Source: an uncultured Verrucomicrobiota bacterium (GTDB lineage Bacteria > Verrucomicrobiota > Verrucomicrobiia > Limisphaerales > JAEYXS01). Taken from it: 64,000 nucleotides of DNA. This document shows positions 491 to 38,343 of the stretch, piece after piece (the stretch's first letter is position 1; each line of letters begins with the position of its first letter). The translations under genes were made by a program, and so were the position numbers. Below the pieces are notes generated by a model. The model worked only from the letters and a program-made list of their open reading frames with translations, searched no databases and was not told the origin of the DNA. Location of the stretch: positions 22,254 to 86,253 of the forward strand of contig CAZPUL010000009.1 in assembly GCA_964589735.1 (NCBI GenBank). The letters are read 5' to 3'.

Positions 491-1159
491 ATGAAGTTGC
501 CTGAAACCAGCTTCCCCCTGCCCCGGCCAGACATGGATCTGGCCCAGGGAAGCAGTCGTAGACGTTTCCTGGGCATCTTGGTGGCAGGCGGCTTGACAGT
601 GGGCGGTGCGCTTCGGGCAGAAGCGAAAACGAAAGCCAAGATCAACCCCTTTCCTTACACCAAGGAAGTGCGGTCAACTACTTCAGCCCTTAAGATCACT
701 GCTGCTCGGTGGCGCTGGATTGTGCTGCATCACAGTGCCATCAAATACGGCAATGCCAGCATCTACGACAAGGCACACCGTGAACGCGGGATGGAGAACG
801 GTCTGGCGTATCATTTTGTGATCGGCAATGGCATCGACTCGGGTGATGGGGAAATCGAGATCGGAACGCGCTGGAAGAAGCAGCTAGTCGGCGGGCATGT
901 GCATCGGGAGGACATGAATGCGGTCGGCATTGGCATCTGCCTGGTCGGCAATCTGGAAGCAACCCGCCCAACGGAGAAGCAGATCACCGCCTTGCGTGAA
1001 CTGCTGGACTATCTTCGCGGTACAGCCTGGGGCAAGAAGCTGAAATTCACCGTGCACAAAGAGGTGGAGCCTGGCCGCACGATCTGTCCAGGAAAGCATT
1101 TCCCGCTCGTAATGATGCAGATGCTGTATGGCAAATCGAAAGTGCCCAAACTTGCCTAA
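491..1159 (+). CDS. N-acetylmuramoyl-L-alanine amidase (Amidase_2/PGRP-like) with Tat signal
   Basis: Twin-arginine signal SRRRFLGILVAGG. Amidase_2-like core WIVLHHSA...AYHFVIGNG...GGHV...AVGIGICLVGN...HKE..CPG. Confidence 0.8.
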   Translation: MKLPETSFPLPRPDMDLAQGSSRRRFLGILVAGGLTVGGALRAEAKTKAKINPFPYTKEVRSTTSALKITAARWRWIVLHHSAIKYGNASIYDKAHRERGMENGLAYHFVIGNGIDSGDGEIEIGTRWKKQLVGGHVHREDMNAVGIGICLVGNLEATRPTEKQITALRELLDYLRGTAWGKKLKFTVHKEVEPGRTICPGKHFPLVMMQMLYGKSKVPKLA

Positions 1160-1821
1160 CGCTTCCGGTGACGGATCAGGCTATGCATCGGGTGTATGAA
1201 GCGGAACTGGTCGCGACGATACTCCAAAGGCGGATACACGGGATTATAGCTGCTTAGGCGCACCATCTCACCGTCCTTACCAAAGGTGTGGTAGAGCTTG
1301 AAAAATACTTCACCGTTTTCTTCCAAACGGGCCACAACGACATCGCCATTCTTCGGCTGTTCGTTCGGCATGAAGATAACCCGGTCACCAGAGCGATACT
1401 CGGGCGTCATCGAGTCGCCTTCCAAGATGAGTGCATAGGCGTTCGGATCCTTGCAGTCGCTGTTGAGATATTCATCGATCTGGGTGGCAGGATCGCCATA
1501 GCTGCCGCCGTATCCGGCCGAAGCCCAACTGACGACTGGGATGGCTTGGGATTTGGTCAAGCTGGTGGCCTGCAACTGGGCCGCCAAACCACGCGGAATC
1601 GAAGAGTCATCACCAAAGAACCAGGCGATGGGACGGTTGAAGGTAGCAGCGACTTTCTGGACTTTTGCTGGATGCGGTAAAGTCTGCCCCATCTCCCAAG
1701 ATTGTACTGAACGCAAAGCCACCCCGATTTGCGTAGCTGCGTCCCGTTGCGACCAGCCCTGAGCGAGCCGACAATCCAAGAGGCGCTTACCGAACATTTG
1801 CTTTTTTTCTGCGTTTTTCAT
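1156..1821 (-). CDS. XRE-family HTH + S24 (LexA/CI-type) self-cleaving repressor
   Basis: HTH LLDCRLAQGWSQRDAATQIGVALRSVQSWEMG. S24 domain ALILEGDSMTPEY..GDRVIF...GDVVVARL..FFKL. ATG at 1821 verified (cat at 1819-1821); the ORF-track start at 1893 only adds a hydrophobic extension. The 3' end overlaps the convergent amidase stop by 4 nt. Confidence 0.8.
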   Translation of the reverse strand: MKNAEKKQMFGKRLLDCRLAQGWSQRDAATQIGVALRSVQSWEMGQTLPHPAKVQKVAATFNRPIAWFFGDDSSIPRGLAAQLQATSLTKSQAIPVVSWASAGYGGSYGDPATQIDEYLNSDCKDPNAYALILEGDSMTPEYRSGDRVIFMPNEQPKNGDVVVARLEENGEVFFKLYHTFGKDGEMVRLSSYNPVYPPLEYRRDQFRFIHPMHSLIRHRKR

Positions 1822-2102
1822 TTGACGAATCCTTGGTTGAATAGCACCATATATGAAGTTAGGAGGGAATATGGCAATCAAAAAAAGAGGCAAACCATGG
1901 AAGTCTTCAGAGTTTACTCACTCAAGTGAGTTTTTTTGAAATCCACGACAGAATCAACCAGCTTTCCGTTCTTTTTACAAACAATCGATAAAATCATATC
2001 TACATATCAAGATACGTTGATTTTTAATTTGAAAAACCTCTGCCTTATCGCTAAATTCATCAGACAAATGGGAACCTTCAATCGGTTCCCGAAAATATAG
2101 CT

Positions 2103-5100
2103 GTGGCAACGTCATCTAAATATACGGTCGGTTCGGGCGAAGTGCTGGAAAAGCTTCTACGGGAACGCATTGTCATCATCGACGGCGCGATGGGCACCAC
2201 CATCCGCACTTACGGCATGACCGAAGCGGACATCCGCGGACAGCGCTTTGCCAACTCCAAGAAGGATCTGCTGAATAACGGAGATCTCTTTTCCCTTACT
2301 CAGCCGAAGATGATCTGTGACATCCACCGCTGCTTCCTCGAAGCCGGTGCGAATATCATCGAGACGAACACCTTCTCCGCCACCAGCATCGGCCAGAGCG
2401 AATTCTTCGTAGATGACCCGCGTGAGCATGGTGGCCGTAAAGATCCGGAATTCTATCAAAAGATCATCGATGACAAGTTCCTCAATGAACTGGCGTGGGA
2501 GATCAATGAGCAATCCGCACGGCAATGTCGTGAATGGGCGGACCGCATCGCGAACAAGGATGGCAAGCCACGTTTTGTCGCTGGTGCAGTAGGACCACTG
2601 ACCGTCTCGCTCTCGAACTCACCGGATGCGGATGATGCAGGTTTCCGCGTGGTGACGTTTGACCAGGTGAAGGCAGTGTATCGCAACCAGATCCGGGCGC
2701 TCATCGCCGGTGGCTCGGACATCCTGATGGTGGAAACGATTTTTGACTCGCTAAACGCGAAGGCGGCTCTGGTCGCCATTCAGGAAATCTTTGACGAGGA
2801 CAAGGTCAAGTTGCCCGTCATCATCTCTGCAGCCGTCGGGCGGGGCGGCGAAACGATGATCTCTGCCCAGACAGTCGAGGCATATTGGAATGCGATGAAG
2901 CACATCCAGCCACTGGCGATCGGACTGAACTGCTCGCTCGGACCGGACTTGATGAGACCGTTCCTGGCAGAACTCGCCACGAAGTCCGATGCCTTCATCT
3001 CGTGCTATCCAAACGCTGGCTTGCCGAATCCACTGTCCCCTACCGGCTTCGACTTGAAGCCCGAGGATATGGGCAATTACCTGACGGATTTTGCGCAAGG
3101 CGGCCTGATCAACATCGCCGGTGGTTGCTGCGGCAATACGCCCGAGCATATCGCGGCCATTGCGAAAGCGCTGGAGGGACGGCATCCCCGCGAAGTTCTG
3201 GATAAAACCGGACGCAAGATTTTCAACGCACCACCCTCCCCCGCTCCAGCGAAACAAGAGAAAGAACCGACGAAGCCTTTGCGTCTAAGCGGTTCGCAAC
3301 CGTTTACTCAACAGATCGGGACCTACATCATGATCGGTGAGCGGACGAATGTGGCAGGGTCGCCGAAATTCGCGAAACTCATCAAAGAAGGCAAATACGA
3401 GGAAGCGGTAAGCATCGCCCGGCAGCAGGTGGAGAACGGCGCGAACATCATCGATATCTGCATGGACGAAGGCATGATCGATGGCGTGGCCGCGATGACG
3501 CGCTTTCTGCAATTGCTTGGCTCCGAGCCGGAAGTGGCCAAGGTGCCCTTCATGGTGGATTCATCCAAGTGGGAGGTCATCGAGGCCGGTCTGAAATGCC
3601 TCCAAGGCAAAGGCATCGTGAACTCCATCTCGCTGAAGGAAGGTGAGGAGAAATTCCGTGAAAACGCTCGCAAAATCCTTAAGTATGGTGCGGCTGTGGT
3701 CGTGATGGCCTTTGATGAAAATGGCCAGGCAGCGACTTATGCGGAGAAAATTCGCATCTGCGAGCGCGCCTATCGCATCCTCGTGGATGAAGTCGGTTTC
3801 CCGTCGGAAGATATCATCTTCGATCCGAACATCCTCACCGTCGCAACGGGCATCGAGGAACATAACAACTACGGCGTGGACTTCATCGAAGCCACCCGCT
3901 GGATCAAGGCGAACTTGCCGCATGCGAAAGTGAGCGGTGGCGTCTCCAACATCTCGTTCAGCTTCCGTGGCAACAATGCGGTGCGCGAGGCCATGCACAG
4001 TGCGTTCCTCTATCATGCCATCGCGGCCGGCATGGACATGGGTATCGTGAACGCAGGCATGCTGGAGGTTTACGAGGAGATCAAGCCGGAGTTGAAGGAA
4101 CTTGTGGAGGATGTGCTGCTGAATCGCCGTCCTGATGCTACGGAACGATTGGTTACATACGGTGAGAAGCTAAAGGCCGAGAGCGCTGGCACGGTCGTCA
4201 GTGATAAAAAAGAAGAAGAGCAATGGCGCAAAGGCACGGTCGAAGAACGCCTTTCGCATGCGCTCGTGAAGGGTATCGATACCTACATCGAGACAGATAC
4301 GGAAGAGGCCCGCGCGAAGCTCGGCAAACCGTTGCTAGTGATTGAAGGGCCGTTGATGGACGGCATGGGCGTCGTCGGCGATCTTTTCGGTGCAGGCAAG
4401 ATGTTCCTGCCGCAAGTGGTTAAATCCGCCCGCGTGATGAAAAAGGCCGTAGCCTATCTCACACCGTTCATGGAAGCGGAGAAGGCCGCGATGATAGCCT
4501 CCGGTCAAACCGTGAAAGCACAGGGTAAGATCATCCTCGCGACCGTGAAAGGCGACGTGCATGACATCGGCAAGAACATCGTGGGCGTGGTGCTCGCGTG
4601 CAATAATTTTGAGGTCATCGACATGGGTGTGATGGTGCCGTGCGAGAAAATTCTCGAACGCGCCAAGCTGGAGAATGCGGACATCATAGGTTTAAGCGGA
4701 TTGATCACGCCATCACTCGATGAGATGACCCATGTCGCCCGTGAGATGGAACGGCAAGGCTTCAAGCTGCCCTTGCTCATCGGTGGTGCGACGACAAGTC
4801 GCGCGCATACGGCGGTCAAAATCGCGCAGCACTACAGCCAACCAGTAGTGCATGTGCTCGATGCCAGCCGTGCCGTGCCGGTGACCACCACTCTGCTCAA
4901 TTCTGAGGATAAAAAAGGATTCGTGGAGAAGCTGAATGACGATTACGAGAAGCTGCGCCAACAGCACGCAGGGCGGAAACAGAAGCTCGTGAGCATCGAG
5001 CAAGCGCGGGCGAACGCACCGAAACTGAGTTACGAGGGCTTGACGAAGCCGGAGTTCATCGGCGCACGGGTCATCGAAGACATGGACCTCGCGACCTTGC

Positions 5101-5963
5101 GTGGGTTCATCGATTGGTCGCCTTTCTTCCACACCTGGGAATTGCGCGGCCGTTATCCCTCCATCCTCACCCATGAGAAGTATGGTGTGGAAGCGACGAA
5201 GCTCTTCAACGACGCGAACAGGTTGATGGACGAGATCATCGCGAAGAGGTTGATCCGCGCGAAAGGCATCTACGGTTTCTTCCCGGCGAACCGCCAGGGC
5301 GCAGATGATGTCGATCTCTTCACGGATGAGACGCGTCAACAAAAGCTGATGACGCTGCACTTCCTGCGGCAGCAGCATGACAAGGAAGCGGGCATGGCGA
5401 ATTGGTCCCTCGCGGACTTCGTCGCGCCAACGGGCACGGCGGATTATTTCGGCGCTTTCGCTGTCACCACGGGCATCGGACTCGATGAGTTGGTGAAGAA
5501 ATACAAAGCGGACCACGATGACTATAACGCCATCATGGCAGAGGCCATCGCCGACCGTCTGGCTGAAGCCTTTGCTGAGTATTTGCACAAGAAAGCGCGC
5601 GAGGAGTGGGGGTACGGCAAGAGCGAGAACCTGAGCCCGGATGATTTGATCGAAGAAAAATATCGTGGCATCCGCCCTGCCCCGGGTTATCCGGCATGCC
5701 CGGATCATACGGAGAAACGGCTGCTCTGGGAGTTGCTGGATGTGGAAAAGACCGCCGGCATCAAACTCACGGAATCCTGCGCCATGTGGCCGGGCAGCAG
5801 CGTGAGCGGTTTCTACTTCGGCCATCCCGAGTCGAAATATTTTGCTGTGGGCAAGTTGGAACGGGACCAGTTACTGGACTACCATCAGCGCAAGGGCATG
5901 ACTCTGGCAGAAGCCGAGCGCTGGCTCGGTCCCTGGCTGAATTACGATCCGGCCAAAGCCTGA
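2103..5963 (+). CDS. metH: Cobalamin-dependent methionine synthase
   Basis: 1286 aa with a GTG start. Hcy-binding module ([24 protein letters not shown]), pterin-binding module, B12-binding DxHxxG ([11 protein letters not shown]), and a C-terminal AdoMet activation domain. Confidence 0.95.
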
Positions 5964-6005: not shown

Positions 6006-8063
6006 CTACACTGCCGGCCCGCTTTGCGTGATGATGCTGCGCACTTTGTTCAGCAGCATCTCAGGTGTATACGGCTTTTGTATGAAGGCAGCCGGGGCCT
6101 TGGTCGTGAAGCGGTTGATGACCTCGCTTTCGCTGAAACCGCTCATCAAAAGCACTTTCACCCCCGGCACGATCATGCGCATGGCGTTGAAGGCCTGATG
6201 CCCATCCATCTTTGGCATCGTCAGATCCAGCACCACCGCCACGATCAGCGCCCGGTGCTCACGGAACACCTCGAGTCCCTCCGCACCATCCGCCGCCGTC
6301 AACACTTGGAAACCGGCTTCCTGCAGGGCCCGGCGACAGACTTCACGCACGGTTTCCTCGTCATCCACTACCAGCACAGTCCCGGTCTGTTTTCTACGCG
6401 CGGCACCAGCCTCCTCTTTTAGCTGCCTTGAGGCCGTGTCATACTTCTCTTTCACCGGCTTGAAGAATACCCGGAAAGTGCTGCCGATGTCCTTGGTGCT
6501 GGATACGGTCAGAATGCCTGCCTGGCTGCGCACAATCCCCAAGACGGCTGGCAGCCCCAAACCGCGACCGATAAATTTGGTGGTGAAGAATGGATCAAAC
6601 ATCCGCAACTTGGTCTTCTCATCCATGCCACAGCCATCGTCCTTCACTTCAAACATCACATATTCATCATGCAGTTTCTCCGGCCGGCATATGGCACCGG
6701 CCAAAAGAGCCTCCTCTGGCGTCACCCGTTTCGTAGTGATCTTCACACAGCCGTTATTGCCTTCCAATGCTTCCAAGGCATTCATCATGAGGTTCATGAT
6801 CAACTGCCGCATCTGCATGGGGTCGCCCAGCACTGGCGGCACGCCAGGTTCCGAATCGAACGAGATTTCGGCGCGGCTGGAATAAGTCGTCCGTAACAGG
6901 GAAACCGTATCCCGGGCAATGTCACTAAGATAAACCGGCCCTAAAATGAACCGTCCACCACCGGCATAGGCGAGCAATTGCCGGCAGAGGTCCGCCGCCC
7001 GTTGCGCGTCCTTCTCAATATCGGTCAAATAGACTGTCATCTCCGCACCAGCCTGCCCATCTTCCTTGACCATGGCCGCATTACAGATGATGCCGGTCAG
7101 CAGATTGTTGAAGTCATGGGCAATCCCGCCCGCCAGCACGCCCAAACTTTCCAACCGTTGCGTTTCCTGCAAGCGGTTGCGCACCAACTCACGGTCTCGT
7201 TCAGCCCGTTTGCGGTCGGTTATATCGATGAATGCCCCCACGGCTCCACGCACCTTACCGGTTTGATCTTGCAAAGGCGCGGCATAGCCCAGGATGTGAC
7301 GGCGCTCACCATCTTGAAAAACGATATCCTCCTCAAACTCATCCACCGTCACGCCTTTGCTGGCTGCCATCTGGATGGGCAAATCCTCCGGCTTAAGCTT
7401 CACCCCTTGGTGTTCCACATGAAAATGATGGGGGGCCTGTTCCGAAGGAGCGCTCAACGAGGCGTTTTGATTCTCATCCACCCTGAGCATCCTAGCGAAC
7501 GCCGCATTGGTCTTGATGGTCAGGCAGGCCGGGTCCTGCGCGATGCCGATACCGACCGGCAGGACTTTTAGCAGCGTCTCCAGTTCCTGCACCCGATTCT
7601 GCAAATCGAGGTTTAGCCGTCTCACTTCCTCCTCGGCTGCCTTGCGCTGCTCGACTTCCCGCGCCAGATCTTGATTCACTTGGGCAAGGCCCGGTAGCGC
7701 CATGGCCTTAGGCAGGTGCTTTATCAGCACCAGCACTGTCGCCCAAGAGGCAGTGGCTGTGATGATCTTCAATAAGCCTGAAAAATGATAGACGGGACGC
7801 CAGAAAATGACCGCTTCCACCAGATGCACCAACCCGCAGGAGAGGATGAAAGCCGCAAACAGCCAGTATAACTTGGGGAAAATAACCTCCCCTTTCCGGC
7901 TGCGAACATAGTATGCGATCGAGAGCGGGATGGCCGCATAGGCACCAAAGATGGCCAGATCGGACAGGATATGTACCCATCCATGCAAGTCCGTCCATTG
8001 CCCGCAATTCCAGCGGGCAGGAAAATCGCTGGTGTCGAACAGACTGGTTATAAGTGAAAACAT
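6006..8063 (-). CDS. Hybrid sensor histidine kinase: ETR1-like 3-TM N-terminal domain, coiled coil, PAS, HisKA, HATPase_c, receiver
   Basis: HisKA H-box GGIAHDFNNLLTGI, HATPase G-boxes (DDGCGMD, GRGLGL), and a C-terminal REC (VLVVDDEE...LDLTMPKMDG). The N-terminal membrane domain is discussed in the findings. Confidence 0.85.
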   Translation of the reverse strand: MFSLITSLFDTSDFPARWNCGQWTDLHGWVHILSDLAIFGAYAAIPLSIAYYVRSRKGEVIFPKLYWLFAAFILSCGLVHLVEAVIFWRPVYHFSGLLKIITATASWATVLVLIKHLPKAMALPGLAQVNQDLAREVEQRKAAEEEVRRLNLDLQNRVQELETLLKVLPVGIGIAQDPACLTIKTNAAFARMLRVDENQNASLSAPSEQAPHHFHVEHQGVKLKPEDLPIQMAASKGVTVDEFEEDIVFQDGERRHILGYAAPLQDQTGKVRGAVGAFIDITDRKRAERDRELVRNRLQETQRLESLGVLAGGIAHDFNNLLTGIICNAAMVKEDGQAGAEMTVYLTDIEKDAQRAADLCRQLLAYAGGGRFILGPVYLSDIARDTVSLLRTTYSSRAEISFDSEPGVPPVLGDPMQMRQLIMNLMMNALEALEGNNGCVKITTKRVTPEEALLAGAICRPEKLHDEYVMFEVKDDGCGMDEKTKLRMFDPFFTTKFIGRGLGLPAVLGIVRSQAGILTVSSTKDIGSTFRVFFKPVKEKYDTASRQLKEEAGAARRKQTGTVLVVDDEETVREVCRRALQEAGFQVLTAADGAEGLEVFREHRALIVAVVLDLTMPKMDGHQAFNAMRMIVPGVKVLLMSGFSESEVINRFTTKAPAAFIQKPYTPEMLLNKVRSIITQSGPAV

Positions 8064-8281
8064 AATTCAAATTCGGCTCTGCATTAGCGTCAACCTCTTG
8101 GCTGTTCATGCAGACAATACACCTCCCCCTTCAAACCACCAATCCCGAAAGTGATTCTCTATGCGTAATCCCCTGAAATGCAAGCCATAGCCGCTCAGAA
8201 AGCCAGCGCAGAATAATACATGCTTTCGCCAAAATTCCTCCATTGTTAGGGGCTCAACTTGTAGTAGACTGTCGGCTACAC

Positions 8282-11437
<3,156 letters not shown>

Positions 11438-11438
11438 T

Positions 11439-12899
11439 ATGAACTGGCCACTCCCTTTCAGTCCCGATCATCGCGCCAGCCTCAACCGTCGCACGTTCCT
11501 CACGCGCAGCGGCCTGGGTCTCGGTTCGCTGGCCTTCGGCTCCCTGCTCTTTCGCGATGGTCGACAGGTCATGGCGGCAGAAGCACCACGTGGAATCGCG
11601 ACCGGCGGCGTCATCAATCCCCCGCACTACCCTATCAAGGCCAAGCGCGTCATCCATCTCTGCATGGCAGGCGGACCTTCCCAAGTCGAATCGTTTGATC
11701 CCAAGCCAGAACTCAAGAAGATCGATGGCCAGCCGTTCCCGGAATCACTGACCAAAGGCCAGCAACTTGCCCAGCTGCAAGGCACCGTCTTGAAAGCCCG
11801 CGGTTCCTTCGTGGATTTCAAGAAGCACGGTAAATCTGGCCAGGAAATCTCCAATCTGTTCCCGCACATCTCGGGAATAGCGGACGACATCTGCATCATC
11901 CGTTCGATGGTGACAGAGCAGATCAATCATGATCCGGCGCACGCCTTCATGAACTCCGGCTCCATCCTGAAAGGCCGTCCCAGCATGGGTTCATGGCTTC
12001 TATATGGTCTCGGCGCAGAGACCGACAGTTTGCCTGGCTTTGTAGTGCTCGTTTCTCAAGGCAAAGGCGGTGGTGCTCAACCTGTCTCCGCCCGGCAATG
12101 GTCCAGCGGCTTTTTGCCGAGCCGGTTTCAGGGCATCCAGTTCCAGTCCAAGGGGGATGCGGTGCATTACGTCGGATATCCCGACGGTGTCTGCCAGAGC
12201 AATCAGCGATTGATCGTGGAGGAGATCAACCGGCTGAACGGGCAATTGTCACAAGAGCGTCTTGATCCCGAGATCCAGACGCGCATGAGCCAGTATGAGA
12301 TGGCCTTCCGCATGCAGAGTTCGGTGCCTGAACTGACGGATTTCAAAAAGGAGCCGCAAAGCATTCTCGACCTGTACGGAGTGAAGGAACCGGGTGATGG
12401 CAGTTTTGCCTCGAACTGCCTGCTGGCCCGCCGTCTGGCCGAACGCGGTGTGCGCTTCATCCAACTCTATCATCGTGCGTGGGATCATCACGGCGACATC
12501 GAGAAGAACATGCCCAAGGCAGCGCTAGAAACGGACCAAGCGAGTGCGGCTCTGGTGAACGACTTGAAGCAGCGCGGTCTGCTGGATGACACACTCATCA
12601 TCTGGGGCGGCGAATTCGGCCGTACGCCGATGGGGCAAGGCACCGGCCGTGATCACCACATCCTCGCCTTCTCCATCTGGATGGCGGGCGGCGGCATGAA
12701 ACCCGGTATCACCTACGGAGCTACGGATGAATTCTCCTACCGGGCCGTGGAGAATGTGGTGAACATGCGGGACCTGCATGCCACCATGCTCCACCAGTGC
12801 GGCATCGACCACAACCGTTTCAGCGTCAAGTTCCAAGGCTTGGATGCCAAGTTGACCGGGGTGGAACCGGCCAAGGTGCTCAAAGCCATCCTCGCATAA
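11439..12899 (+). CDS. DUF1501 (sulfatase-like) protein with Tat signal
   Basis: NRRTFLTRSGLGLGSLAFG twin-arginine signal. DUF1501-type motifs (MAGGPSQVESFDPKP, WDHHGD, GGEFGRTP, GRDHH). Starts 1 nt after the stop of the preceding PSD1 gene. Confidence 0.85.
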   Translation: MNWPLPFSPDHRASLNRRTFLTRSGLGLGSLAFGSLLFRDGRQVMAAEAPRGIATGGVINPPHYPIKAKRVIHLCMAGGPSQVESFDPKPELKKIDGQPFPESLTKGQQLAQLQGTVLKARGSFVDFKKHGKSGQEISNLFPHISGIADDICIIRSMVTEQINHDPAHAFMNSGSILKGRPSMGSWLLYGLGAETDSLPGFVVLVSQGKGGGAQPVSARQWSSGFLPSRFQGIQFQSKGDAVHYVGYPDGVCQSNQRLIVEEINRLNGQLSQERLDPEIQTRMSQYEMAFRMQSSVPELTDFKKEPQSILDLYGVKEPGDGSFASNCLLARRLAERGVRFIQLYHRAWDHHGDIEKNMPKAALETDQASAALVNDLKQRGLLDDTLIIWGGEFGRTPMGQGTGRDHHILAFSIWMAGGGMKPGITYGATDEFSYRAVENVVNMRDLHATMLHQCGIDHNRFSVKFQGLDAKLTGVEPAKVLKAILA

Positions 12900-13925: not shown

Positions 13926-15548
13926 TTAGAATTTATGCGCGGCATGGGCACCGAGCACGAACTCGAACTGCAACCAGACGGAGTGATCGATGCCGATGTC
14001 CGTGCGGTCGTCGTAATTGTATTGCAACCGGATCTTGGAGAACTCGGTCGGATACCAGGTCAGGTTCGGGGAAACACGATAGCGTGTCGCGCGGAACTTG
14101 TCGAAGACGCCATTGAAACCGCCCGCACCGTCTGGTTCAAGGAGCCCCATGGTCTGATACGAGGCCACATCGCCCGTCACATAGTCGAAACGAAGTCCAG
14201 CCACCCACCCTTTGCGGAAACCGTAGCTCAACTGCGAATACAGGCCGTAATCCGTGAGTTTCTCCGCTGGCAAAACCGCCGGTAAACCGGTGACCGGATC
14301 GAACAACTGGCCGGGATCGGCGCTCCCATCGCCATCTTCATCCGCAAGCAGGCCGTCCGCGTCCTCATCCCAATCGAATGAGCCGGTGCCATACTTGCGC
14401 ATCATGGCCTCGGTCTGGAACTGCACGAATGGGAAACCGCCGGAGTGATTCTCCGGTTTCCATTTCCAGGTCAGGTCCACACCATAGATCTCGGTGCGCG
14501 TGTTCTCACCACCCCCGCCATTAGCATTGGGTCCGAAGGCGCCAGAAACGCCGAGCAACAAAGTCTGGTTATCCGTCAGGTTGAACGAGGTCGCCAAGCG
14601 GGGTGTGATGAGCAGGTCATCGAAGCGCTTCATGCCGCGATTGTTGTCCGCATGACGGAAGCTGAACGGAATGCCCTCCGCTTCATCTCCACCATGAGAA
14701 TGACCACCATCACTGCGGAATCCCGTGGCCGTGGCTCCCTGACTGTTCTGCAATCCAAGGAAGAGTTCCGTATACCAGGGCGTCGGTGCCAGCCAGGAGA
14801 GGCGGGCACCGGGATTGCGCAGACCATCAGCCCCCAAGAAACGGGCATTCACCAACGGCGCATCCATGAAGGACCACGAGTGCGGATGCTGGGTATTGAT
14901 ACGACCGAACTCGGTCAGATATTGGCCAGCCCGAATCTGAAAATTGCCCGGCAAGGCGATGGATTCCAACCAAGCCTCTTCCAATTCCACGAAGGTTTCC
15001 CCTTCCCCATCGATGGCAAAAAGGACGTTCGCATTGCCACGGAAGTAAGGATCCACGGCTCCAGAAAAGTTGGCTTCCAGACCTTGGAATGTAAAACCAC
15101 GCTGGTTCGGGTCATGACCACCAATCTGCAAATCATCCAGATCATTGGCCGTCGAGCTGCCAGCGGCAAAGGTGCCCACGATGCCGATGTCCATGAACGC
15201 CGCGCCCTTGCGCAGCCGGATGGGATCGGTGATGCGCCAGGGCTGATCCATCATGGTATCACCGGACTTGGCAGCGCCTTCAGCAGGAGCGGTCGCGACC
15301 TGTTGTTTGATGGTCTGCTGCTCTTGGGTGATGGCGGTCTGGTTTTGCTTCAACTGCTGAAGCTGCTGTTCCAGCAACTGGATCTGCTGGCGTTGCAGTT
15401 CCTGCTGTTTGTGGAATTCCTCCTGCATCTGCTGGAGCTGCTTTTGCAGTTGCTCCACAGAAGGAACGTTATTCTGGGCATGGGTCTGGCCACAAAGGGC
15501 CGAGAGCATCAGAGCGGACGATACGGCGAAGAGAGATTTCTTGTTCAT
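13926..15548 (-). CDS. Putative outer-membrane beta-barrel protein with N-terminal Q-rich coiled coil
   Basis: Signal peptide (ALMLSALCGQTHA), then a QLQKQLQQMQEEFHKQQELQRQQIQLLEQQLQQLKQ coiled coil. Alternating beta-strand-like pattern, a His-rich loop (GGHSHGGDEAEG), an acidic DxDxDG-like loop, and a C-terminal ...AHAAHKF aromatic terminus typical of OMPs. Confidence 0.6.
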   Translation of the reverse strand: MNKKSLFAVSSALMLSALCGQTHAQNNVPSVEQLQKQLQQMQEEFHKQQELQRQQIQLLEQQLQQLKQNQTAITQEQQTIKQQVATAPAEGAAKSGDTMMDQPWRITDPIRLRKGAAFMDIGIVGTFAAGSSTANDLDDLQIGGHDPNQRGFTFQGLEANFSGAVDPYFRGNANVLFAIDGEGETFVELEEAWLESIALPGNFQIRAGQYLTEFGRINTQHPHSWSFMDAPLVNARFLGADGLRNPGARLSWLAPTPWYTELFLGLQNSQGATATGFRSDGGHSHGGDEAEGIPFSFRHADNNRGMKRFDDLLITPRLATSFNLTDNQTLLLGVSGAFGPNANGGGGENTRTEIYGVDLTWKWKPENHSGGFPFVQFQTEAMMRKYGTGSFDWDEDADGLLADEDGDGSADPGQLFDPVTGLPAVLPAEKLTDYGLYSQLSYGFRKGWVAGLRFDYVTGDVASYQTMGLLEPDGAGGFNGVFDKFRATRYRVSPNLTWYPTEFSKIRLQYNYDDRTDIGIDHSVWLQFEFVLGAHAAHKF

Positions 15549-22527: not shown

Positions 22528-23604
22528 TTAAGGCTCGGAACGGGCAAAAGCCACGAACGCTGCTTTTTGCGCTTCCACGACCGCCGTGGCGCCGCGCAAC
22601 TTGTAGAAGTACCACTGCCCGCCGCGCGGGACGATCGCTCCCACAATCCGGTCATCATTATTATCCATATCCACCAAGATGGCCCCGGGAATCGAGGAAT
22701 CAAGGGGCTGCACCAGTTTCGCCAGTCCGGCGGCATCCACCGGCTCCAGCTTCAACTGTCCGCGCCAGCGGTTGATGTTCGCCAGATTGCCGCCCGTATC
22801 AGAAGGAAAGACGCTGACGGTGACCTCGGCGGTTGCATCTTTTTGGGGCGGCATCTGGAATTTCGCCAACACCATGGCTCCCGGAGCCACTTCTTTCCAG
22901 GTGGCTGGCACGGCCCATTTGGAGCCGGAACCACCGGCCGGACTCGGAACTGTCGCAGCCGCATCACTGCCCGCCGTGCCTCCACCGGCCCCGAACCGCA
23001 CGGACTTGATGAACGCGAGGAAGTTCGCCTTTTCCTTCGTCACCAGCGCGTCATCACCGGAAATCTTGTAAAACCAGCTCGTGTCGGTGTCGTGCTGCAT
23101 CACGGTCACGATGCGCTGCACCCCCTCGGAGCCACTGGCAGTATTGGCGATTTCGAAGAGCCGGCCCTGCTTGCCTGCGACTTCGGCGCTGCTCAGTAAT
23201 TTGTCGGCCTCTTCCTTGCTAATCTCGGGCATGCCCATCTGCTGCCGCCACATGTTGACGACTTCCGTCTCGCGATTGGCCAACGGCGGCAAGGGGGCGA
23301 TGGATACGTTGGCCTTCAAGCCGCCCGCGCCATCGATATTGAAATTCGCCACGCTCACCTGGTTCTGCGGCACTTCCGTCCAGCCTGCCGGAACGGTGTA
23401 ATCCAGCTTGGGCCGTGCCGGGGCACTGGGCCGCTCCACCGCCGAGGGCGCAGAGCCGTGGGCATGGCCATGACCGGCGTGGGCAGCCTTCTCCTTCGGG
23501 GCTTGATAAACCCGGATTGCCTCCTGTTCTCCGCAACCAGCCAGCAGAAGACTGCCGGATATGAGGGCGGAAGACCAAACTTTATGTGTAAAACGCTTTG
23601 CCAC
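22528..23604 (-). CDS. Lipoprotein with His-rich linker and two tandem homologous domains (unknown function)
   Basis: GTG at 23604 (verified) gives (M)AKRFTHKVWSSALISGSLLLAGC, a lipobox. HAGHGHAHG follows, then two ~130-aa repeats. It lies 15 nt upstream of resB. The ORF-track start at 23868 would put 88 non-signal residues in front of the signal peptide. Confidence 0.6.
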   Translation of the reverse strand: MAKRFTHKVWSSALISGSLLLAGCGEQEAIRVYQAPKEKAAHAGHGHAHGSAPSAVERPSAPARPKLDYTVPAGWTEVPQNQVSVANFNIDGAGGLKANVSIAPLPPLANRETEVVNMWRQQMGMPEISKEEADKLLSSAEVAGKQGRLFEIANTASGSEGVQRIVTVMQHDTDTSWFYKISGDDALVTKEKANFLAFIKSVRFGAGGGTAGSDAAATVPSPAGGSGSKWAVPATWKEVAPGAMVLAKFQMPPQKDATAEVTVSVFPSDTGGNLANINRWRGQLKLEPVDAAGLAKLVQPLDSSIPGAILVDMDNNDDRIVGAIVPRGGQWYFYKLRGATAVVEAQKAAFVAFARSEP

Positions 23605-24080
23605 AGAACTTTCTAAGCTAGCTATTGCCCTTGCAGAGTAGCAACAAAATATCCTTCCATCAGGAGTCTGAGCCGCCCGGAAATGGGTCAATTTCGGTAT
23701 TATGACAGGCGACCCGGCCAAACTATTCAAACACCGTTCCATAAATAAGCTCGGCTTAACCTGGCCATCGCCAGGCTGCCCCGCGCTTTCCTCTTCTCCG
23801 GCCTTGATCTGGTTAATCATTATTTTACTTCTCTTGAACGTCTTTCCGGTCGTTTTCCATGCCACCACTTTGCCACTATTATCGGCCTCCCGTTAGCCTT
23901 GGCCTCGTTATTCCACACTATTCTCGGACTAAATTCCCGCTTTTTCATGACCTCATACTGCCATGTCTCCTGGTTGATCGTTAGCTTTCCGCTCGCTGCA
24001 ACTCACTGCAGCTACACATAATCTCGATCTCATGCCTCGCAGACTGACAGGTTCCCGGGGTTTCTGCTAACCATGCATCT

Positions 24081-26352: not shown

Positions 26353-28545
26353 TCAGTATGGCAAGGGGAACTTGGCGGTTAAGCGCTTCACACGTTCGCG
26401 CACAGAGTGTGCGGCGTCAAGATTTTTGATGTCCGCCAGCACTTCGCTGATCATGTCGGCAATCTCCGCCATTTCAGCTTCTTTCATACCGCGCGTGGTG
26501 ACGGCCGGTGTGCCCAAACGGACACCACTGGCCTGGAACGGCGAACGGGTCTCGAACGGAATCGTGTTCTTGTTCGTCGTGATGCCCGCTTCATCGAGCG
26601 CGATCTGGGAATCCTTGCCCGTGATACCCTTGGCGCCCACGTCCACCAGCATCAAGTGATTATCCGTGCCACCACTGACCAAACGGTAACCATTGCGGAT
26701 CATGCCCTCCGCCAGCGCCGCCGCATTCTTCACGATCTGCTGTTGATAGGTCTTGAAAGAAGGTTGCAGCGCTTCCTGGAAGCAAACCGCTTTCGCGGCG
26801 ATGACGTGCATCAACGGCCCACCCTGAATGCCCGGGAATGCCTGTGAATCGATTTCCTTCTGATACTTCGCCTTGCACATGATTAGACCGCCGCGAGGTC
26901 CGCGCAGGGTCTTGTGCGTGGTCGTCGTCACGAAGTCGGCATAAGGAACCGGGTTCGGATGGATGCCCGCCGCCACCAGACCGGCGATGTGCGCGATGTC
27001 CGCCAGCATCAGCGCGCCAACCTCTTGCGCGATCTCGCTCATGCGCTTGAAATCGATGATGCGTGGATAGGCGCTCGCACCCACCGTGATCATCTTGGGC
27101 TTGTGTTCACGGGCCATCTGCGAGAGCTGATCGTAATCGATCCGCTCGTCGTCCTTTCGCACGCCGTAGTGCACGATCTCGAAAAACTTGCCGGAGAAAT
27201 TCGCCTTGTTGCCATGGGTCAAGTGACCGCCATGGCTCAGGTCCATCGTCAGCATCTTGTCACCGGGCTTTAGCATGGCGAAATAAACGGCCATGTTCGC
27301 ACCGGAACCGGAATGCGGCTGCACGTTAGCATGCTCGGCACCAAACAATTTTTTGGCGCGCTCGATGGCGAGCGTCTCCACCACATCGACGTTTTCGCAA
27401 CCGCCGTACCAGCGCTTGGCCGGATAACCTTCGGCGTACTTGTTCGTCAGCACCGAACCTTGGGCTTCCATCACCGCGGGGCTGGTGAAGTTCTCGCTCG
27501 CGATGAGCTCGATGTTCTCCTGTTGGCGTTGGCGCTCCTGTTTGATCAACTGGGCGATCTCAGGGTCCGTTTGGGCGAGAGGCTGGGCCATCGGGCCGCA
27601 GCACGTCGAAGCAGTATTCTCCATCTTGTTTACTCGTCTTTCATGCCGCCCGCCTTCAAAGCGGGCGTTCAAAAATGTATCCACGATGCGTTTGGCCTGT
27701 TCGGTGGTCACCAGCTTCTCACCGAGGCAAAGCACATTCGCATTATTATGCTGGCGGCAGAGGGCGGCCATTTCTTCATTGAACACCAGTGCAGCGCGGA
27801 TGCCCGGCACTTTGTTCGCCGTGATGCTCATGCCCACCCCTGTCGTGCAGACCAGAATTCCCTCCTCCGCCTGACCGCGGGCCACGCATTGGGCCACTGC
27901 ATGGGCGAAGTCCGGATAATCGGTGGACTCTGTGGACATGGTGCCCAAGTCCTCCACCGTGATCCCCTGCCCTTGCAGATGACTCTTGAGGGCTTCCTTC
28001 AACTTGAAACCGCCGTGGTCGGACCCGATTGCTAAAGTCTTTTTCATGGCTGCGTGAGCGCCCGCCGCTGCCGCTTCGGTCTGCTCGATAAAATGAACTG
28101 CGGACTTCACCCCCGCCTCGATCTCATCCCGGCAATGGGCATAGACATGGAAGGGACTGCCAATGGGGTCCGATATCTCTTTGTCGTAGCCTTCCACCGA
28201 GTCATCGAACTCGCGCAACAGGAAGGTCTTCTCTGCCGCTTGCGGATACATGTAGATCAGGCTGTCGAGGTGGCTCTGGGTCATCCCGAAAATGTAGTCC
28301 GCCTGATCCACGATCTGGCCGGTGACCATCTTGCTCATCTGTCGGGAGATATCGATGCCCTTCTCGCGCATCGCCGTCACAGAATGCACGCTCGGTGCCT
28401 GCCCGTTCATCGCCCCGACACCGGCGGAAAGGACGCGATATCCCTTCCGGTTCTTGACCGCTTCACGGAAAAAACCTTCCGCCATGGGACTGCGGCAAAT
28501 GTTACCGGTGCAAATGACCAAAATTGTTATCTCGCCAGCCATCAA
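26353..28545 (-). CDS. glyA: Single-ORF fusion: LMW phosphotyrosine/arginine phosphatase + ribose-5-phosphate isomerase B + serine hydroxymethyltransferase
   Basis: aa 1-166: [13 protein letters not shown]-loop and DPIG. aa 167-318: [17 protein letters not shown]...CTTGVGMSI...GGRHERR (RpiB). aa 319-730: [38 protein letters not shown]...[14 protein letters not shown] (SHMT with PLP Lys). There are no stop codons between the modules. Domain boundaries are about 28048-28545, 27592-28047 and 26353-27591. Confidence 0.85.
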
Positions 28546-32145: not shown

Positions 32146-33264
32146 TTAGCCCTTCTTGTTCTGAAAGAGATAGTGAGAAACCAGCCATTCCCCACCGTTA
32201 CGATATCCCCACAGTTCACCACACGCCATGTAGAAAACACGCCAGTAAACCCACCACTTGGTCGTGTTCTCGGCCCCGTAAGTATCCGCGAAGATCTGGC
32301 GGATTTCCGGCTCATGGGCATCCATGTTGGCCAGCCACGCTTCGGCGGTCTTCTGGTAATGCACGCCGTTCACTCGCCAATGGTTTTGGAGACTCAGGTC
32401 ATCCTGAAAATACAGCAACAGATCATCAGAGGGCATGATGCCGCCGGTGAAGAAATAACGGGCCATCCAGTCGGACTCATCCTTGGCCACGAAATGATAG
32501 GCATACTCCTTGTGGGTGAAAATGTGCACGAAGAGCTTCCCGTCCGGCTTCAACCAGCGACTGATATTGCCGAGCAATGTCTGGTAATTCTTCATGTGCT
32601 CGAACATCTCCACCGACACCACGCGATCAAAACGGTTCGTCTCGATGTCGAAACGGTTCACGTCACAGGTGATGATGGTGACGTTCTTCAGGCCGCGCCG
32701 GGCGGCTTCGGCATCGATGAAAAGCTTCTGCGTGCGGGAATTGGAAACGCCCGTGATGCGTGCCTGTGGGTAACGCTCGGCCATCCACAAGGTCAGCGAG
32801 CCCCAACCACAGCCCAGCTCGAGTATCTCCTGTCCGTTAGCCAGCTCGGCCCTTTCGCCGTAAAACGCCAGCATCTTTTCTTCGGCCTCATCCAAAGTCT
32901 CAACCCCATCGGGCCAAAGAGCACCACTGTATTTCAGGCGCTTGCCGAGGCACAACTGGTAGAAACGCGTTGGCACTTCGTAGTGTTGCTCGTTCGCCGC
33001 CGGCATATCGACGGCAATCGGGCTGCGGCGGAGTTCATGAACCAGCTTCAACAGATGAGCCCGCTGGGCCTCGATGCTGCCCTTGTTCTCCTCCCGCAAG
33101 CGCTCGGCCAATAAACGGCGAATACCGATGCGCAGCAGGAAATCCGGGAACACATCTCGTTCCAGCAACCGGTCCAGCAGACCGGATGAGGCCGCCTTCT
33201 CATTGAACGAGAAAGATTCCACGTTTGCCGCCACCGATGCGGTTGATGCTTCGCTAGTCTTCAT
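32146..33264 (-). CDS. Cyclopropane-fatty-acyl-phospholipid synthase family SAM-dependent methyltransferase (second copy)
   Basis: SAM motif [26 protein letters not shown]; CMAS-family layout. ATG at 33264 forms an ATGA overlap with the upstream gene's stop. Confidence 0.8.
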
Positions 33265-34064
33265 GCTTGCTCCTTCTTTTTTGGAAACCACGGCACAAAC
33301 TTGTTCGTCGTGCGCTGATACTCTCGATAGGGCTCACCCTTGGTTTTCACCGCCAGTTCTTCTGTCATCGGGATGCCCGTCACCTTCAGCAGGAAATGCC
33401 ACATCAAGAGCGGGCAAAAGAAAGTGACCCAACCCCATGGCGAGCCGCAGGCGAACAGGAAGAACCCCACCCAGATCAACCATTCAAAGAAATAGTTCGG
33501 ATGGCGCGAATACCGCCACAGCCCCACCTGGCACACCCCGCCCTTGTTCGCCGGATTCGCTTTGAAGCTCTTTAACTGGGCATCAGCCACGGTTTCACCC
33601 GTCAGCGCAATCAGCCATACTGTGAAGCCAAACCATTCGACCAACTGGATCTGCGGTGCCGGGTTCAAAGCTGCCAAGAGAAATGGCAGCGAGAGCACAA
33701 GCTGCAACGCCCCTTGCAGTTGGAAAAACCAGAACATCTTACGGTCGGCAGCAGCTCCCCACTCCACACGTAATTGCGCATAGCGACGGTCTTCCACCGG
33801 ATGATGGCCCATCACGCGAAAATAAAGATACCCGCCCAAACGCAAACTCCACAGGGCTGCCATGGATGTGATGAGCCAACGGCGGGTGCCATCCCCATGC
33901 GCCAACACGCTATACAACACCGCCACGACACTGAACCCTGCCGACCAGGCTATATCTACGATACCGGCGTTATTGATACGCACACTAAGCCACCAGATGA
34001 AAGCCATCAGCATCACGCAGAAGGTGAACGCAACGGCCAGCAAGGCGAGAAAGTCGCTCAGCAT
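33261..34064 (-). CDS. DUF1295 (steroid 5-alpha-reductase/ICMT-like) membrane protein
   Basis: Multi-TM protein with the hallmark [21 protein letters not shown] at 34064 verified; 7-nt overlap with the upstream gene. Confidence 0.7.
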
Positions 34065-34591
34065 GGTTTCCCCTTGGTTGCCCAACGACGTATGATGGGT
34101 AAAAACGCCAGATACAATCCCCAGGCAATGAAGGGCGAGCACACTGCCCAGGCCAAAATGGCATGCAAACCAGTCATACCGAAGTCCTGCAGGAACTGAC
34201 CCGGCGACGCATTGAAACGATCCACCATGTCAGTGACAGAAAATGCCACCGGCTTGGCTCCGACCAATTTTTCTCCCAATCGGATGAATACCAGTATCAT
34301 CAGCAACTGCACACCTGACATAAGCCAGTTGATGAGCTGCAGGATGGGATGATTGAGCTTCAACGCTGCCCCGACCAGCAAGCACAGCGTGGTCGTACTG
34401 CCCAAGATCGGAAAGACCGACAAGACCAGGCCCAGCCCGATGGTGAGTGATGCTTTCTCCGGCGTAAGCCCTTGCTTCAACTGCCCTACCACGGGAGCCA
34501 CGATGCGACGCTGCCAGAATGATTCCCTTGCCGCGGCAACTGGTGCCACCACAGGTTCAGGCATTCTGTTAAGGGCATCACTCACGAGCAT
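34058..34591 (-). CDS. DUF2062-like membrane protein
   Basis: SLTIGLGLVLSVFPILGSTTTLCLLVGAALKLNHPILQ plus further TMs, matching the DUF2062 pattern (from memory). Confidence 0.6.
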   Translation of the reverse strand: MLVSDALNRMPEPVVAPVAAARESFWQRRIVAPVVGQLKQGLTPEKASLTIGLGLVLSVFPILGSTTTLCLLVGAALKLNHPILQLINWLMSGVQLLMILVFIRLGEKLVGAKPVAFSVTDMVDRFNASPGQFLQDFGMTGLHAILAWAVCSPFIAWGLYLAFLPIIRRWATKGKPC

Positions 34592-34597
34592 AGTCTT

Positions 34598-34945
34598 TCA
34601 GGCGGCAACTCTTGCTGCCGGTCGCAGTAACAGGTCTTCCATCCGGGCATGGGCAGGAAGTTTGAAAAGCCGATAGAGCATGTAGGCAGCCATGGCGATG
34701 TTGCCAAGCAGCAGGATGGCCAAGAGCCAGATGACACGGGCGACGTTCGATGTCTCCCGATAAGCCAGCCAGAGGTAGAATGTGAGGAAACCAAAGTAAG
34801 TATCAAACAACGTAGCGATGAACCATGGGTGCGTGGCCACCTCCCGTGGCGTCTTCCACAAAGCCACTTCCGTGCTGGCCCAAGATGTGACCGCCAGCAT
34901 GGCGATCAGCACAAAGATGAAGAATCCTCGAAAAAATGTTATCAT
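34598..34945 (-). CDS. Small 4-TM membrane protein (DUF1475-like)
   Basis: ATG at 34945 verified, 1 nt after the upstream stop. Motif HPWFIATLFDTYFGFLTFYLWLAYRE. The ORF-track N-terminal extension overlaps the upstream cfa gene and was rejected. Confidence 0.55.
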   Translation of the reverse strand: MITFFRGFFIFVLIAMLAVTSWASTEVALWKTPREVATHPWFIATLFDTYFGFLTFYLWLAYRETSNVARVIWLLAILLLGNIAMAAYMLYRLFKLPAHARMEDLLLRPAARVAA

Positions 34946-34946
34946 A

Positions 34947-36242
34947 TCAACCACGCAAAGTTGGGTTGTTCGGCCAGCTATAGACCACTTGCACCACGCT
35001 GATATTACGCATGGCAAAGGCCGCCTCGCAGTAACAGAGGTAATAGTTCCATTTGCGGATGAAGCGTTCATCAAATCCCTGCGCTTTCACTCCTTCGCCC
35101 CGGGCATTGAACGCCTCCCACCACAGGTGCAGGGTGCGGGCGTAGGAGAGGCCGATATCTTTCAGATCATACAGCACCATGCCGCCCGTGTTCTGGATGG
35201 CCTGATTCACACGCCCCACCGAGAGCAGCAAAGAACCCGGGAAGATATGCTTTTGGATCCAATCCACATTCGTGCGCAGCGAGTCGTACCGTGAATCGGC
35301 ACAGGTGATCATCTGCAAAGCCAGCAAACCATCCGGCTTCAAAAGCTGCTGGCAATTGGCGAAATAGGTCTCCAAAAATTTGTCACCTACCGCCTCTAGC
35401 ATCTCGATGGAAACTATTTTATCAAACTTGCCCGCGATGAGGCGGTAATCCTGCAACAAGATTTCCACGCGATCCGCCACTCCTTCTTGCTTAAACCTTT
35501 CCTGCGCGAACTTGTATTGCTCCTCCGAGATGGTGACCGTGGTCACACGGCAGCCGTAGTGCTTCACCGCATGACACGCCATGCCACCCCATCCGCTACC
35601 GATCTCCAACAAGTGATCCGTCGGCTTGAGTTTGAGCTGACGGCAGAGGCGGTCGTATTTGGCCACCTGAGCTTCCTCCAATGTCTGCGATGCCGCTGTG
35701 AAATGCGCGCTGGAGTAGGTCATCGTAGGGTCTAGAAAAAGCCGGTAGAAACAGTTACCCAAGTCATAATGCTCGTGGATGTTCTGCTTGCTCATCGCCA
35801 CGCTGTTGGCCCGGCGCTCGTGCAGCCAGACATTATAGCGGCGAAAGAGATTGAGCGCCGTATCCTTCCCGGCCTTGGAACCGGACATCGTCGGGGCATG
35901 GGCGATATTGGCGATGAACCAAGAGATCACATCCGTGACGTTCTCCGTATCCCAGTCCCCATCCACGTAAGCCTCGCCAAAACCGACATCACCGAACAGA
36001 ACGCACCGGCGGAAGAACTCTTCCCGGCGCACCTTGATGTTCGCTGCCGGCGTTGCATTGAGCTGGCCGAAGACGCGCACTTCGCCATCGGGGAACTCAA
36101 AACGCAGGCAGCCCGCCTGCATCGGCACCAGTGAGGCCATAACCGCCTGGCGATAGAGGCGCTGAAGCCAGGTGAGGCTTTGCGACACGCCTGTTGCCGA
36201 TGGTTGCTCCAAGGTGGCGATGGGATGGCTCGTTAAACTCAT
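34947..36242 (-). CDS. cfa: Cyclopropane-fatty-acyl-phospholipid synthase family SAM-dependent methyltransferase
   Basis: YDLGNCFYRLFLDPTMTYSSAHF, LLEIGSGWGGMA, VTTVTISEEQ, IVSIEMLEAVG, LYDLKDIGLSYARTLHLW: full-length CMAS pattern. ATGA overlap with the upstream DUF1365 gene. Confidence 0.85.
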   Translation of the reverse strand: MSLTSHPIATLEQPSATGVSQSLTWLQRLYRQAVMASLVPMQAGCLRFEFPDGEVRVFGQLNATPAANIKVRREEFFRRCVLFGDVGFGEAYVDGDWDTENVTDVISWFIANIAHAPTMSGSKAGKDTALNLFRRYNVWLHERRANSVAMSKQNIHEHYDLGNCFYRLFLDPTMTYSSAHFTAASQTLEEAQVAKYDRLCRQLKLKPTDHLLEIGSGWGGMACHAVKHYGCRVTTVTISEEQYKFAQERFKQEGVADRVEILLQDYRLIAGKFDKIVSIEMLEAVGDKFLETYFANCQQLLKPDGLLALQMITCADSRYDSLRTNVDWIQKHIFPGSLLLSVGRVNQAIQNTGGMVLYDLKDIGLSYARTLHLWWEAFNARGEGVKAQGFDERFIRKWNYYLCYCEAAFAMRNISVVQVVYSWPNNPTLRG

Positions 36243-38322: not shown

Positions 38323-38343
38323 GGTTTCGTTAAGAGATACGCC

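Follow-up and report, generated by a model that had tools for sequence, protein, structure and literature searches.

Can a bacterium of the Verrucomicrobiota sense ethylene with a receptor of the plant type? This question is raised by a hybrid histidine kinase gene at positions 6006-8063 (minus strand) of a 64,000-nucleotide stretch of DNA from an uncultured Verrucomicrobiota bacterium (contig CAZPUL010000009.1), below called the window. An earlier note, made from the letters of the DNA, had proposed that the N-terminal membrane domain of this kinase corresponds to the copper-containing ethylene-binding domain (EBD) of ETR1 from Arabidopsis. Judged from its sequence, the 685-residue protein is indeed an inner-membrane hybrid sensor kinase, probably dimeric, and its EBD is of the type found in ETR1, SynEtr1 and AzoEtr1. 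By analogy with these receptors it most likely uses Cu(I) to sense ethylene, or a small alkene like it, and passes the signal into a phosphorelay; in this we have fair confidence.

The ethylene-binding domain

The open reading frame (ORF) starts with ATG and, according to the ORF list and the translation, contains zero internal stops. In the Pfam scan the domains follow in the order ETR1_N, PAS_4, HisKA, HATPase_c and Response_reg. This is the output part that had been described, PAS-HisKA-HATPase-receiver (REC), unlike the GAF-kinase-REC arrangement of plants. Also WNCGQW and the other peptides quoted at that time are found in the translation.

The match to ETR1_N (PF25487) covers residues 27-123 and model positions 2-97 of 97, with 103.5 bits and an E-value of 7.8e-30, while the curated gathering score of the model is 27 bits.

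Independently of Pfam, a hidden Markov model (HMM) was built from 18 plant sequences only. The search set comprised 4,561 stop-to-stop ORFs, taken from the window and from 82 other loci (about 76 of these loci contain unrelated sensor histidine kinases), together with 500 shuffles of the EBD. The window protein scores 34.7 bits (E 3.9e-9) and AzoEtr1 74.7 bits. Besides these two, the only matches at E <= 10 are three orthologues and a protein on another contig that is identical to that of the window. Since the plant-only HMM is restricted to EBD proteins in this way, the likeness to ETR1 is specific and goes beyond that of generic three-helix sensors; the refuting outcome named in the earlier note did not occur.

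Three hydrophobic segments with short loops between them are seen by hydropathy in the first 125 residues. An AlphaFold2 model of residues 1-135, based on an alignment of 76 sequences, has a mean predicted local distance difference test score of 94.6 and places helices at residues 25-55, 63-85 and 92-122; the three transmembrane (TM) helices read from the sequence are thereby found by both approaches. In the model Asp35, His80 and Lys99 sit 5-10 residues from the periplasmic helix ends, that is, at matching depth. The loop between the first two helices (RSRKGEVIFPK) is positively charged, so by the positive-inside rule the N-terminus would be outside and the C-terminus inside, as in ETR1.

A sequence search of the PDB with residues 1-130 gave no significant match, and Foldseek found no fold match to the model in the PDB at E < 1. 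As neither sequence nor fold has a match there, no solved EBD structure appears to exist. The Foldseek matches at E > 1 were generic helical membrane proteins and were disregarded.

The kinase part is complete as well. HisKA, HATPase_c and Response_reg all score over their Pfam cut-offs, and the HATPase_c motifs NLMMNA (424), DDGCG (475), FDPFF (489) and GRGLG (499) are all there. In the receiver the acidic pair D567/D568, D613, S641 and K663 are intact. With the H-box histidine, the N, G1, F and G2 boxes and the receiver pocket all present, the protein is, as far as motifs tell, a hybrid two-component kinase. The linker between the third helix and the PAS domain is probably a coiled-coil signalling helix. 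No equivalog name could be taken from NCBIfam: the kinase part matches CckA/VirA-like models far under their cut-offs, and NCBIfam has no EBD model.

Binding-site residues and known receptors

The residues that would hold the copper were read from the codons on the minus strand: Cys76 is TGC (7836-7838) and His80 is CAT (7824-7826), while Asp35 is GAT and Lys99 is AAG. To compare them with other receptors we aligned the window EBD, plant entries named 'ethylene receptor', ETR1 of Arabidopsis, one gammaproteobacterial EBD and five proteins of the PVC group (Planctomycetes, Verrucomicrobia and Chlamydiae). With the N-terminus of Arabidopsis ETR1 used here, database entries of plants named 'ethylene receptor' are recovered at 85-91% identity, and D25, C65, H69 and K91 fall at their known numbers.

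Fourteen columns are invariant in this alignment: D35, Y42, I45, P46, F69, F72, I73, C76, G77, H80, K99, S106, T109 and P118. In ETR1 they are D25, Y32, I35, P36, F58, F61, I62, C65, G66, H69, K91, S98, T101 and P110. The Cu(I) ligand pair of ETR1, spaced C-x3-H, is therefore kept as Cys76 and His80. The equivalents of Asp25, Tyr32, Pro36 and Lys91 named in the earlier note are also in place, and those of Ile35, Ile62, Ser98 and Pro110 can be added to them. Conservation is not limited to these few proteins. The functional ETR1-equivalent positions are 95-100% conserved among the 76 plant and bacterial EBDs, and D35, Y42, I45, P46, I73, C76, H80, K99, S106 and P118 are identical in the three orthologues. 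Among the closest representatives in the database the C-x3-H motif is found in 147/147 and D..Y..IP in 144/147, which argues for selection on the binding site.

Tyr32 is said to have been counted among the required ethylene-binding residues of ETR1 by Wang et al. in 2006. Seven residues of ETR1 are reported as necessary for ethylene binding (PMC11819568, PMC6682694, PMC6944256), and C65, H69, I35, P36, I62 and D25 are named among the binding residues (PMC6586836, PMC10266040). A polar bridge between K91 and D25 couples binding to output (PMC10266040), and S98 and P110 have roles in signal transmission (PMC6586836). Near the metal the only deviation is V79, where ETR1 has T68 and the subfamily G, T or V. 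Valine should be tolerated here, because the T68A variant of ETR1 keeps ethylene binding (PMC10266040).

A bacterial relative validated by experiment is AzoEtr1. We located it in Azospirillum brasilense Sp7 (L081:3001-4578) as a 525-residue ORF starting with MFGGVEAF; this start translates the published cloning primer (PMC11819568), and D35, C75, H79 and K98 are at the published positions. Residues 1-130 of AzoEtr1 bind 14C-ethylene. In Azospirillum, ethylene treatment and disruption of the receptor have the same effect, and the D35A and C75A alleles served as non-binding controls, so that the response to ethylene goes through the EBD (PMC11819568).

The alignment of AzoEtr1 with the window protein begins at residue 1 and remains collinear across the kinase; over 528 residues the identity is 30% (E 9e-48), and the order of EBD, charged helical linker, PAS, HisKA and HATPase is the same. 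Asp35 has the same number in both, and C75, H79 and K98 of AzoEtr1 correspond to C76, H80 and K99. The linkers after the third helix align (LPKAMALPG...REVEQRKAAE in the window protein, MPKALALPS...REIEIRRQAE in AzoEtr1), and both PAS domains end in DITDRKR. Each protein has one N-terminal cysteine in a C-x2-W context, PHGVCLFW in AzoEtr1 and RWNCGQW here.

There are also differences. The two EBDs are only 37% identical, and the host of AzoEtr1 is a plant-associated alphaproteobacterium while that of the window protein belongs to the Verrucomicrobiota. Further, AzoEtr1 lacks a fused receiver and has a single-domain response regulator gene directly downstream, whereas here REC is part of the kinase itself and no partner gene adjoins it. 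Given the collinearity, the window protein can be described as an AzoEtr1-type receptor with a receiver fused to it. That this receiver is a captured AzoEtr1-type partner was considered, but its identity to that partner (31%, against 35% to an unrelated REC of the window) is uninformative.

With Arabidopsis ETR1 the window protein shares the three-helix EBD, all ten functional residues and the layout of a hybrid kinase with a C-terminal receiver. However, ETR1 has a GAF domain in the place of PAS, two N-terminal cysteines (C4 and C6) instead of one, and T68 instead of V79. The EBD identity is 34% (BLASTP). ETR1 also resides in the membrane of the endoplasmic reticulum and signals via CTR1 and EIN2, not by a phosphorelay.

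The cyanobacterial receptors SynEtr1 (slr1212, Synechocystis) and GeiEtr1/2 (Geitlerinema) could be compared from the literature only (PMC6682694, PMC11819568). Like the window protein they have one N-terminal cysteine and the seven binding residues, and their signalling as bacterial EBD histidine kinases needs phosphotransfer by the histidine kinase. SynEtr1 has an extra light-sensing GAF-type domain and an adjacent response regulator as its output. Plasmid-borne EBDs of other cyanobacteria are 34-41% identical to the window EBD.

Directly before the first helix, and outside the Pfam ETR1_N model, lies a motif that is distinctive of the PVC-type subfamily. RWxCGxW is present in 201/210 sequences of the subfamily, and its R, W, C, G and W columns are invariant in the subfamily alignment. 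At the same site proteobacterial EBDs (AzoEtr1, Exilibacterium) have PHGxCxxW and plants C-x-C-x4-W. In cyanobacterial receptors the single N-terminal cysteine has been proposed to form a disulfide in the dimer (PMC6682694). By analogy Cys20, the cysteine of RWNCGQW, may do the same.

Proposed mechanism and alternative explanations

Family membership, conserved residues, three-helix topology, intact catalytic motifs and collinearity with AzoEtr1 are what the sequence shows. Copper loading, ligand identity, the sign of the signal and the downstream partners are what we infer from the characterized receptors. One Cu(I) per monomer would be held within the membrane by Cys76 and His80 of the second helix, with Asp35 of the first helix orienting the copper-binding histidine. 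The ligand, ethylene or a small alkene much like it, would partition into the bilayer and bind to the copper. The resulting change would pass through the polar bridge between Asp35 and Lys99 and the third helix (Ser106, Pro118) to the coiled-coil linker and on to the PAS domain, where it would alter autophosphorylation of His316. From His316 the phosphoryl group would move to Asp613 of the fused receiver and then, presumably, to an unlinked histidine phosphotransfer (Hpt) protein and a response regulator. Ligand binding most likely switches the kinase output off, since in Azospirillum ethylene acts like the loss of the receptor, as it does in plants.

Some observations weigh against ethylene as the signal. 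The PVC subfamily carries an invariant periplasmic motif of its own, and it is farther from plant EBDs than AzoEtr1 is (34.7 vs 74.7 bits with the plant-only HMM). The PAS domain could be a second or even the dominant input. Finally, no Hpt protein, stand-alone response regulator, copper transporter or ethylene-metabolism gene is found in the 64-kb window, nor an ACC (1-aminocyclopropane-1-carboxylate) deaminase or ethylene-forming enzyme; with no informative neighbours, the genomic context lends no functional support.

The first two of these points agree with another ligand on the same fold and the same copper, namely some other small pi-acceptor able to coordinate Cu(I). Candidates are carbon monoxide, an isocyanide, propylene and further short alkenes or alkynes; the PVC subfamily would then be tuned to a signal that matters to free-living aquatic or soil bacteria. 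ETR1-type sites also bind other olefins and carbon monoxide, with lower affinity. The subfamily is a separate one, with 50-68% identity internally against 34-41% to other EBDs, and the position beside the copper-binding histidine, T in plants, varies among G, T and V. Nevertheless, every residue that ETR1 requires for ethylene binding is kept, and all tested EBDs with the same residues, from Arabidopsis, tomato, Synechocystis and Azospirillum, bind ethylene (PMC10266040, PMC11819568). A ligand other than ethylene is therefore unlikely.

Somewhat less probable still is that the three helices are only a membrane anchor and dimerisation module, or a copper or redox sensor, while PAS is the real input and ethylene is irrelevant. 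In favour of this, PAS has the membrane domain on one side and the kinase on the other, ligand binding is common among PAS domains, and the gene is an orphan among its neighbours. However, a mere anchor would not keep ten buried residues of defined function, polar as well as hydrophobic, across thousands of sequences. Sensing of copper levels is also ill suited to a domain that binds Cu(I) as a fixed cofactor, with a dissociation constant of about 1e-15 M (PMC6586836). Further, AzoEtr1 has the same EBD-PAS-kinase layout and answers to ethylene via its EBD (PMC11819568).

That the likeness to ETR1 is a generic similarity of three-helix sensors and not homology, for which nothing speaks except the modest BLASTP identity to ETR1, is refuted by the full-length Pfam match, the specificity of the plant-only HMM and the invariant key columns.

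The PVC subfamily and the surroundings of the gene

The best genomic match of the window protein is a full-length orthologue of 685 residues, 94% identical, in a Verrucomicrobia metagenome-assembled genome (MAG; L001), which agrees with the PVC origin assumed in the earlier note. Two more orthologues have the same length: one is 83% identical, in a MAG labelled Chitinophaga pinensis (L002, CALRJY020000020.1), and one 79%, in an uncultured Verrucomicrobiota MAG (L003). The L002 protein and protein P0289 are near-identical, of Verrucomicrobia type, and come from MAGs to which the names 'Chitinophaga pinensis' and 'Candidatus Dormibacteraeota' have been given, probably through errors in binning or labelling.

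In an exhaustive HMMER search over 1.84 billion cluster representatives (clusters at 50% identity) the EBD was matched by 7,004 proteins when the threshold was E <= 1e-3; tightening it to E <= 1e-10 left 4,212 of them, and E <= 1e-30 left 643. These 643 clusters form a close subfamily, mostly from the PVC group, in which EBD-PAS-kinase is the usual architecture. At least 150 representatives have EBDs 50-68% identical to that of the window protein, while the identity of the PVC subfamily to plant, cyanobacterial and alphaproteobacterial EBDs is 34-41%. All 77 of the closest full-length representatives contain ETR1_N; HATPase_c is found in 70, HisKA in 62, PAS in about 51, a receiver in 23, GAF in 7 and GGDEF in 1. 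By domain content and identity the window protein is an ordinary member of this PVC-type ETR1_N subfamily.

Close EBD relatives with names are from Phycisphaera, Stieleria varia, Verrucomicrobiales, Luteolibacter, Planctomycetaceae, Verrucomicrobiae, Roseimicrobium and Prosthecobacter fusiformis. The last of these is in culture (homologue WP_133794452.1, P0137) and gives access for testing ethylene sensing in the PVC group. A tblastn search over a plasmid collection found EBDs of 32-43% identity in Azospirillum, cyanobacteria, Rhizobium, Novosphingobium and others. In public records PVC-type EBD proteins have generic labels such as 'ATP-binding protein', 'response regulator' or 'PAS domain S-box protein', and one Stieleria homologue already carries the Pfam domain name in UniRef.

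How new is the protein then? The earlier note had stressed that receptors outside plants are rare. This is right for those validated by experiment, which are SynEtr1, AzoEtr1, a response in Geitlerinema and a fungal case (PMC11819568, PMC6682694), but predicted EBD proteins are very common, as the counts above show. Putative ethylene receptors are described from many bacteria, with cyanobacteria and proteobacteria as the groups named (PMC7700396, PMC11819568, PMC6682694), and 1,221 EBD sequences from eukaryotes and prokaryotes went into one earlier study (PMC10266040). Searching the literature for ethylene receptors in connection with Planctomycetes or Verrucomicrobia yielded nothing but papers on rhizosphere microbiomes that mention the terms together by coincidence; PVC entries may stand in the supplementary lists of earlier surveys. 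Thus the extension of the range to the PVC group holds in that membership in the Verrucomicrobiota is real, but it is incremental: a Pfam model exists, and adding a receiver to AzoEtr1 would give the same architecture. The gene adds an unstudied member to a receptor family already known, and neither the mechanism nor the protein family is new.

The wider interest lies in the subfamily. Microbial ethylene sensing has so far been framed by plant association and by the plastid origin of plant receptors, and the few non-plant receptors tested come from cyanobacteria, a fungus and a single alphaproteobacterium that lives with plants. A conserved receptor-like kinase in Verrucomicrobiota with hundreds of PVC kin suggests that an ethylene sense is spread much more widely among bacteria of the environment. 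Tentatively, and with clearly less confidence than for the single protein, we propose that the PVC-type EBD proteins are a large clade of functional receptors for ethylene or small alkenes, one that the searched literature does not discuss. They amount to at least 643 clusters, occur in free-living Verrucomicrobiota and Planctomycetota, carry RWxCGxW and are mostly built as EBD-PAS-kinase, some of them with REC. If this is true, ethylene sensing is common among aquatic and soil bacteria, beyond plant-associated or photosynthetic lineages, and the interest of the gene would rise accordingly. RWxCGxW and the variable residue beside the copper-binding histidine might then tune affinity or the range of ligands.

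The kinase gene is a solitary one. Convergent with it, 42 nucleotides away, is metH (2103-5963, plus strand), and divergent from it is a PSCyt1/PSCyt2/PSD1 gene (8243-11437), which is followed by a DUF1501 gene. The order PSCyt/DUF1553 protein, kinase, MetH is kept among the orthologous MAG loci. A link through metH to ethylene derived from methionine or S-adenosylmethionine is unsupported, as the two genes are convergent and the synteny is limited to close relatives. A scan for promoters and terminators around the kinase gene gave nothing over the expectation from shuffles.

The PSCyt1/PSCyt2/PSD1 (DUF1549/DUF1553) gene and its DUF1501 partner (8243-12899, plus strand) belong to families named after Planctomycetes, which fits a PVC origin, and the former keeps its position beside the kinase in L001 and L003. 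Two other sensor kinases are encoded in the window, neither with an EBD. The coordinates of all features are collected in Table 1.

Table 1. Features of the kinase gene and of other parts of the window (aa, amino acid; nt, nucleotide position).
Feature	Position	Strand	Remarks
Hybrid histidine kinase, complete gene	6006..8063	-	EBD, probable coiled-coil linker, PAS, HisKA, HATPase, REC; Pfam and full-length orthologues
N-terminal extracytoplasmic segment, aa 1-24	7992..8063	-	Sole Cys20 inside RWNCGQW (aa 16-22, nt 7998-8018)
Ethylene-binding domain, Pfam ETR1_N, aa 27-123	7695..7985	-	PF25487 and plant-only HMM
TM helix 1, aa 25-55	7899..7991	-	Asp35 (nt 7959-7961), Tyr42, Ile45, Pro46 = ETR1 D25, Y32, I35, P36
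TM helix 2, aa 63-85	7809..7877	-	Ile73, Cys76 (nt 7836-7838), His80 (nt 7824-7826) = ETR1 I62, C65, H69; putative Cu(I) ligands
TM helix 3, aa 92-122	7698..7790	-	Lys99 (nt 7767-7769), Ser106, Pro118 = ETR1 K91, S98, P110; putative signal-transmission residues by ETR1 equivalence
Charged helical linker from TM helix 3 to PAS, aa 124-169	7557..7694	-	Sequence LAQVNQDLAREVEQRKAAEEEVRRLNLDLQNRVQELETLL; aligns with AzoEtr1 linker
PAS domain, aa 170-286	7206..7556	-	PAS_4 25.8 bits (cut-off 23.1), aa 172-286; collinear with AzoEtr1 PAS
HisKA dimerisation/phosphoacceptor domain, aa 310-367	6963..7136	-	His316 (nt 7116-7118) within AHDFNNLL
HATPase_c catalytic domain, aa 413-535	6459..6827	-	N, G1, F and G2 boxes intact
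Fused receiver (REC), aa 563-675	6039..6377	-	Response_reg 74.3 bits; Asp613 phosphoacceptor (nt 6225-6227)
LexA-like repressor (HTH_3 and Peptidase_S24)	1156-1893	-	Adjoins N-acetylmuramoyl-L-alanine amidase gene, 491-1159
540-aa ORF	13926-15548	-	No Pfam match at E <= 1e-5
446-aa ORF	22528-23868	-	No Pfam match at E <= 1e-5; flanked by ResB-like and Rho genes
Apparent triple fusion, stop-free 730-aa ORF	26353-28545	-	Low-molecular-weight phosphotyrosine phosphatase aa 8-147, RpiB 172-308, serine hydroxymethyltransferase 323-699
Putative lipid gene cluster	32146-39315	-	Two cyclopropane-fatty-acid-synthase-like methyltransferases, DUF1295, DUF1365, flavin amine oxidase, fatty-acid desaturase
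Hybrid kinase, 1,170 aa	47902-51414	-	PAS_3, GAF, three PAS, HisKA, HATPase, REC; no EBD
Reg_prop/Y_Y_Y HisKA_3 kinase, 1,026 aa	55368-58448	+	No EBD

The remainder of the window consists of housekeeping genes. Among the features in the lower part of the table, the putative lipid gene cluster is probably an operon for the modification of membrane lipids.

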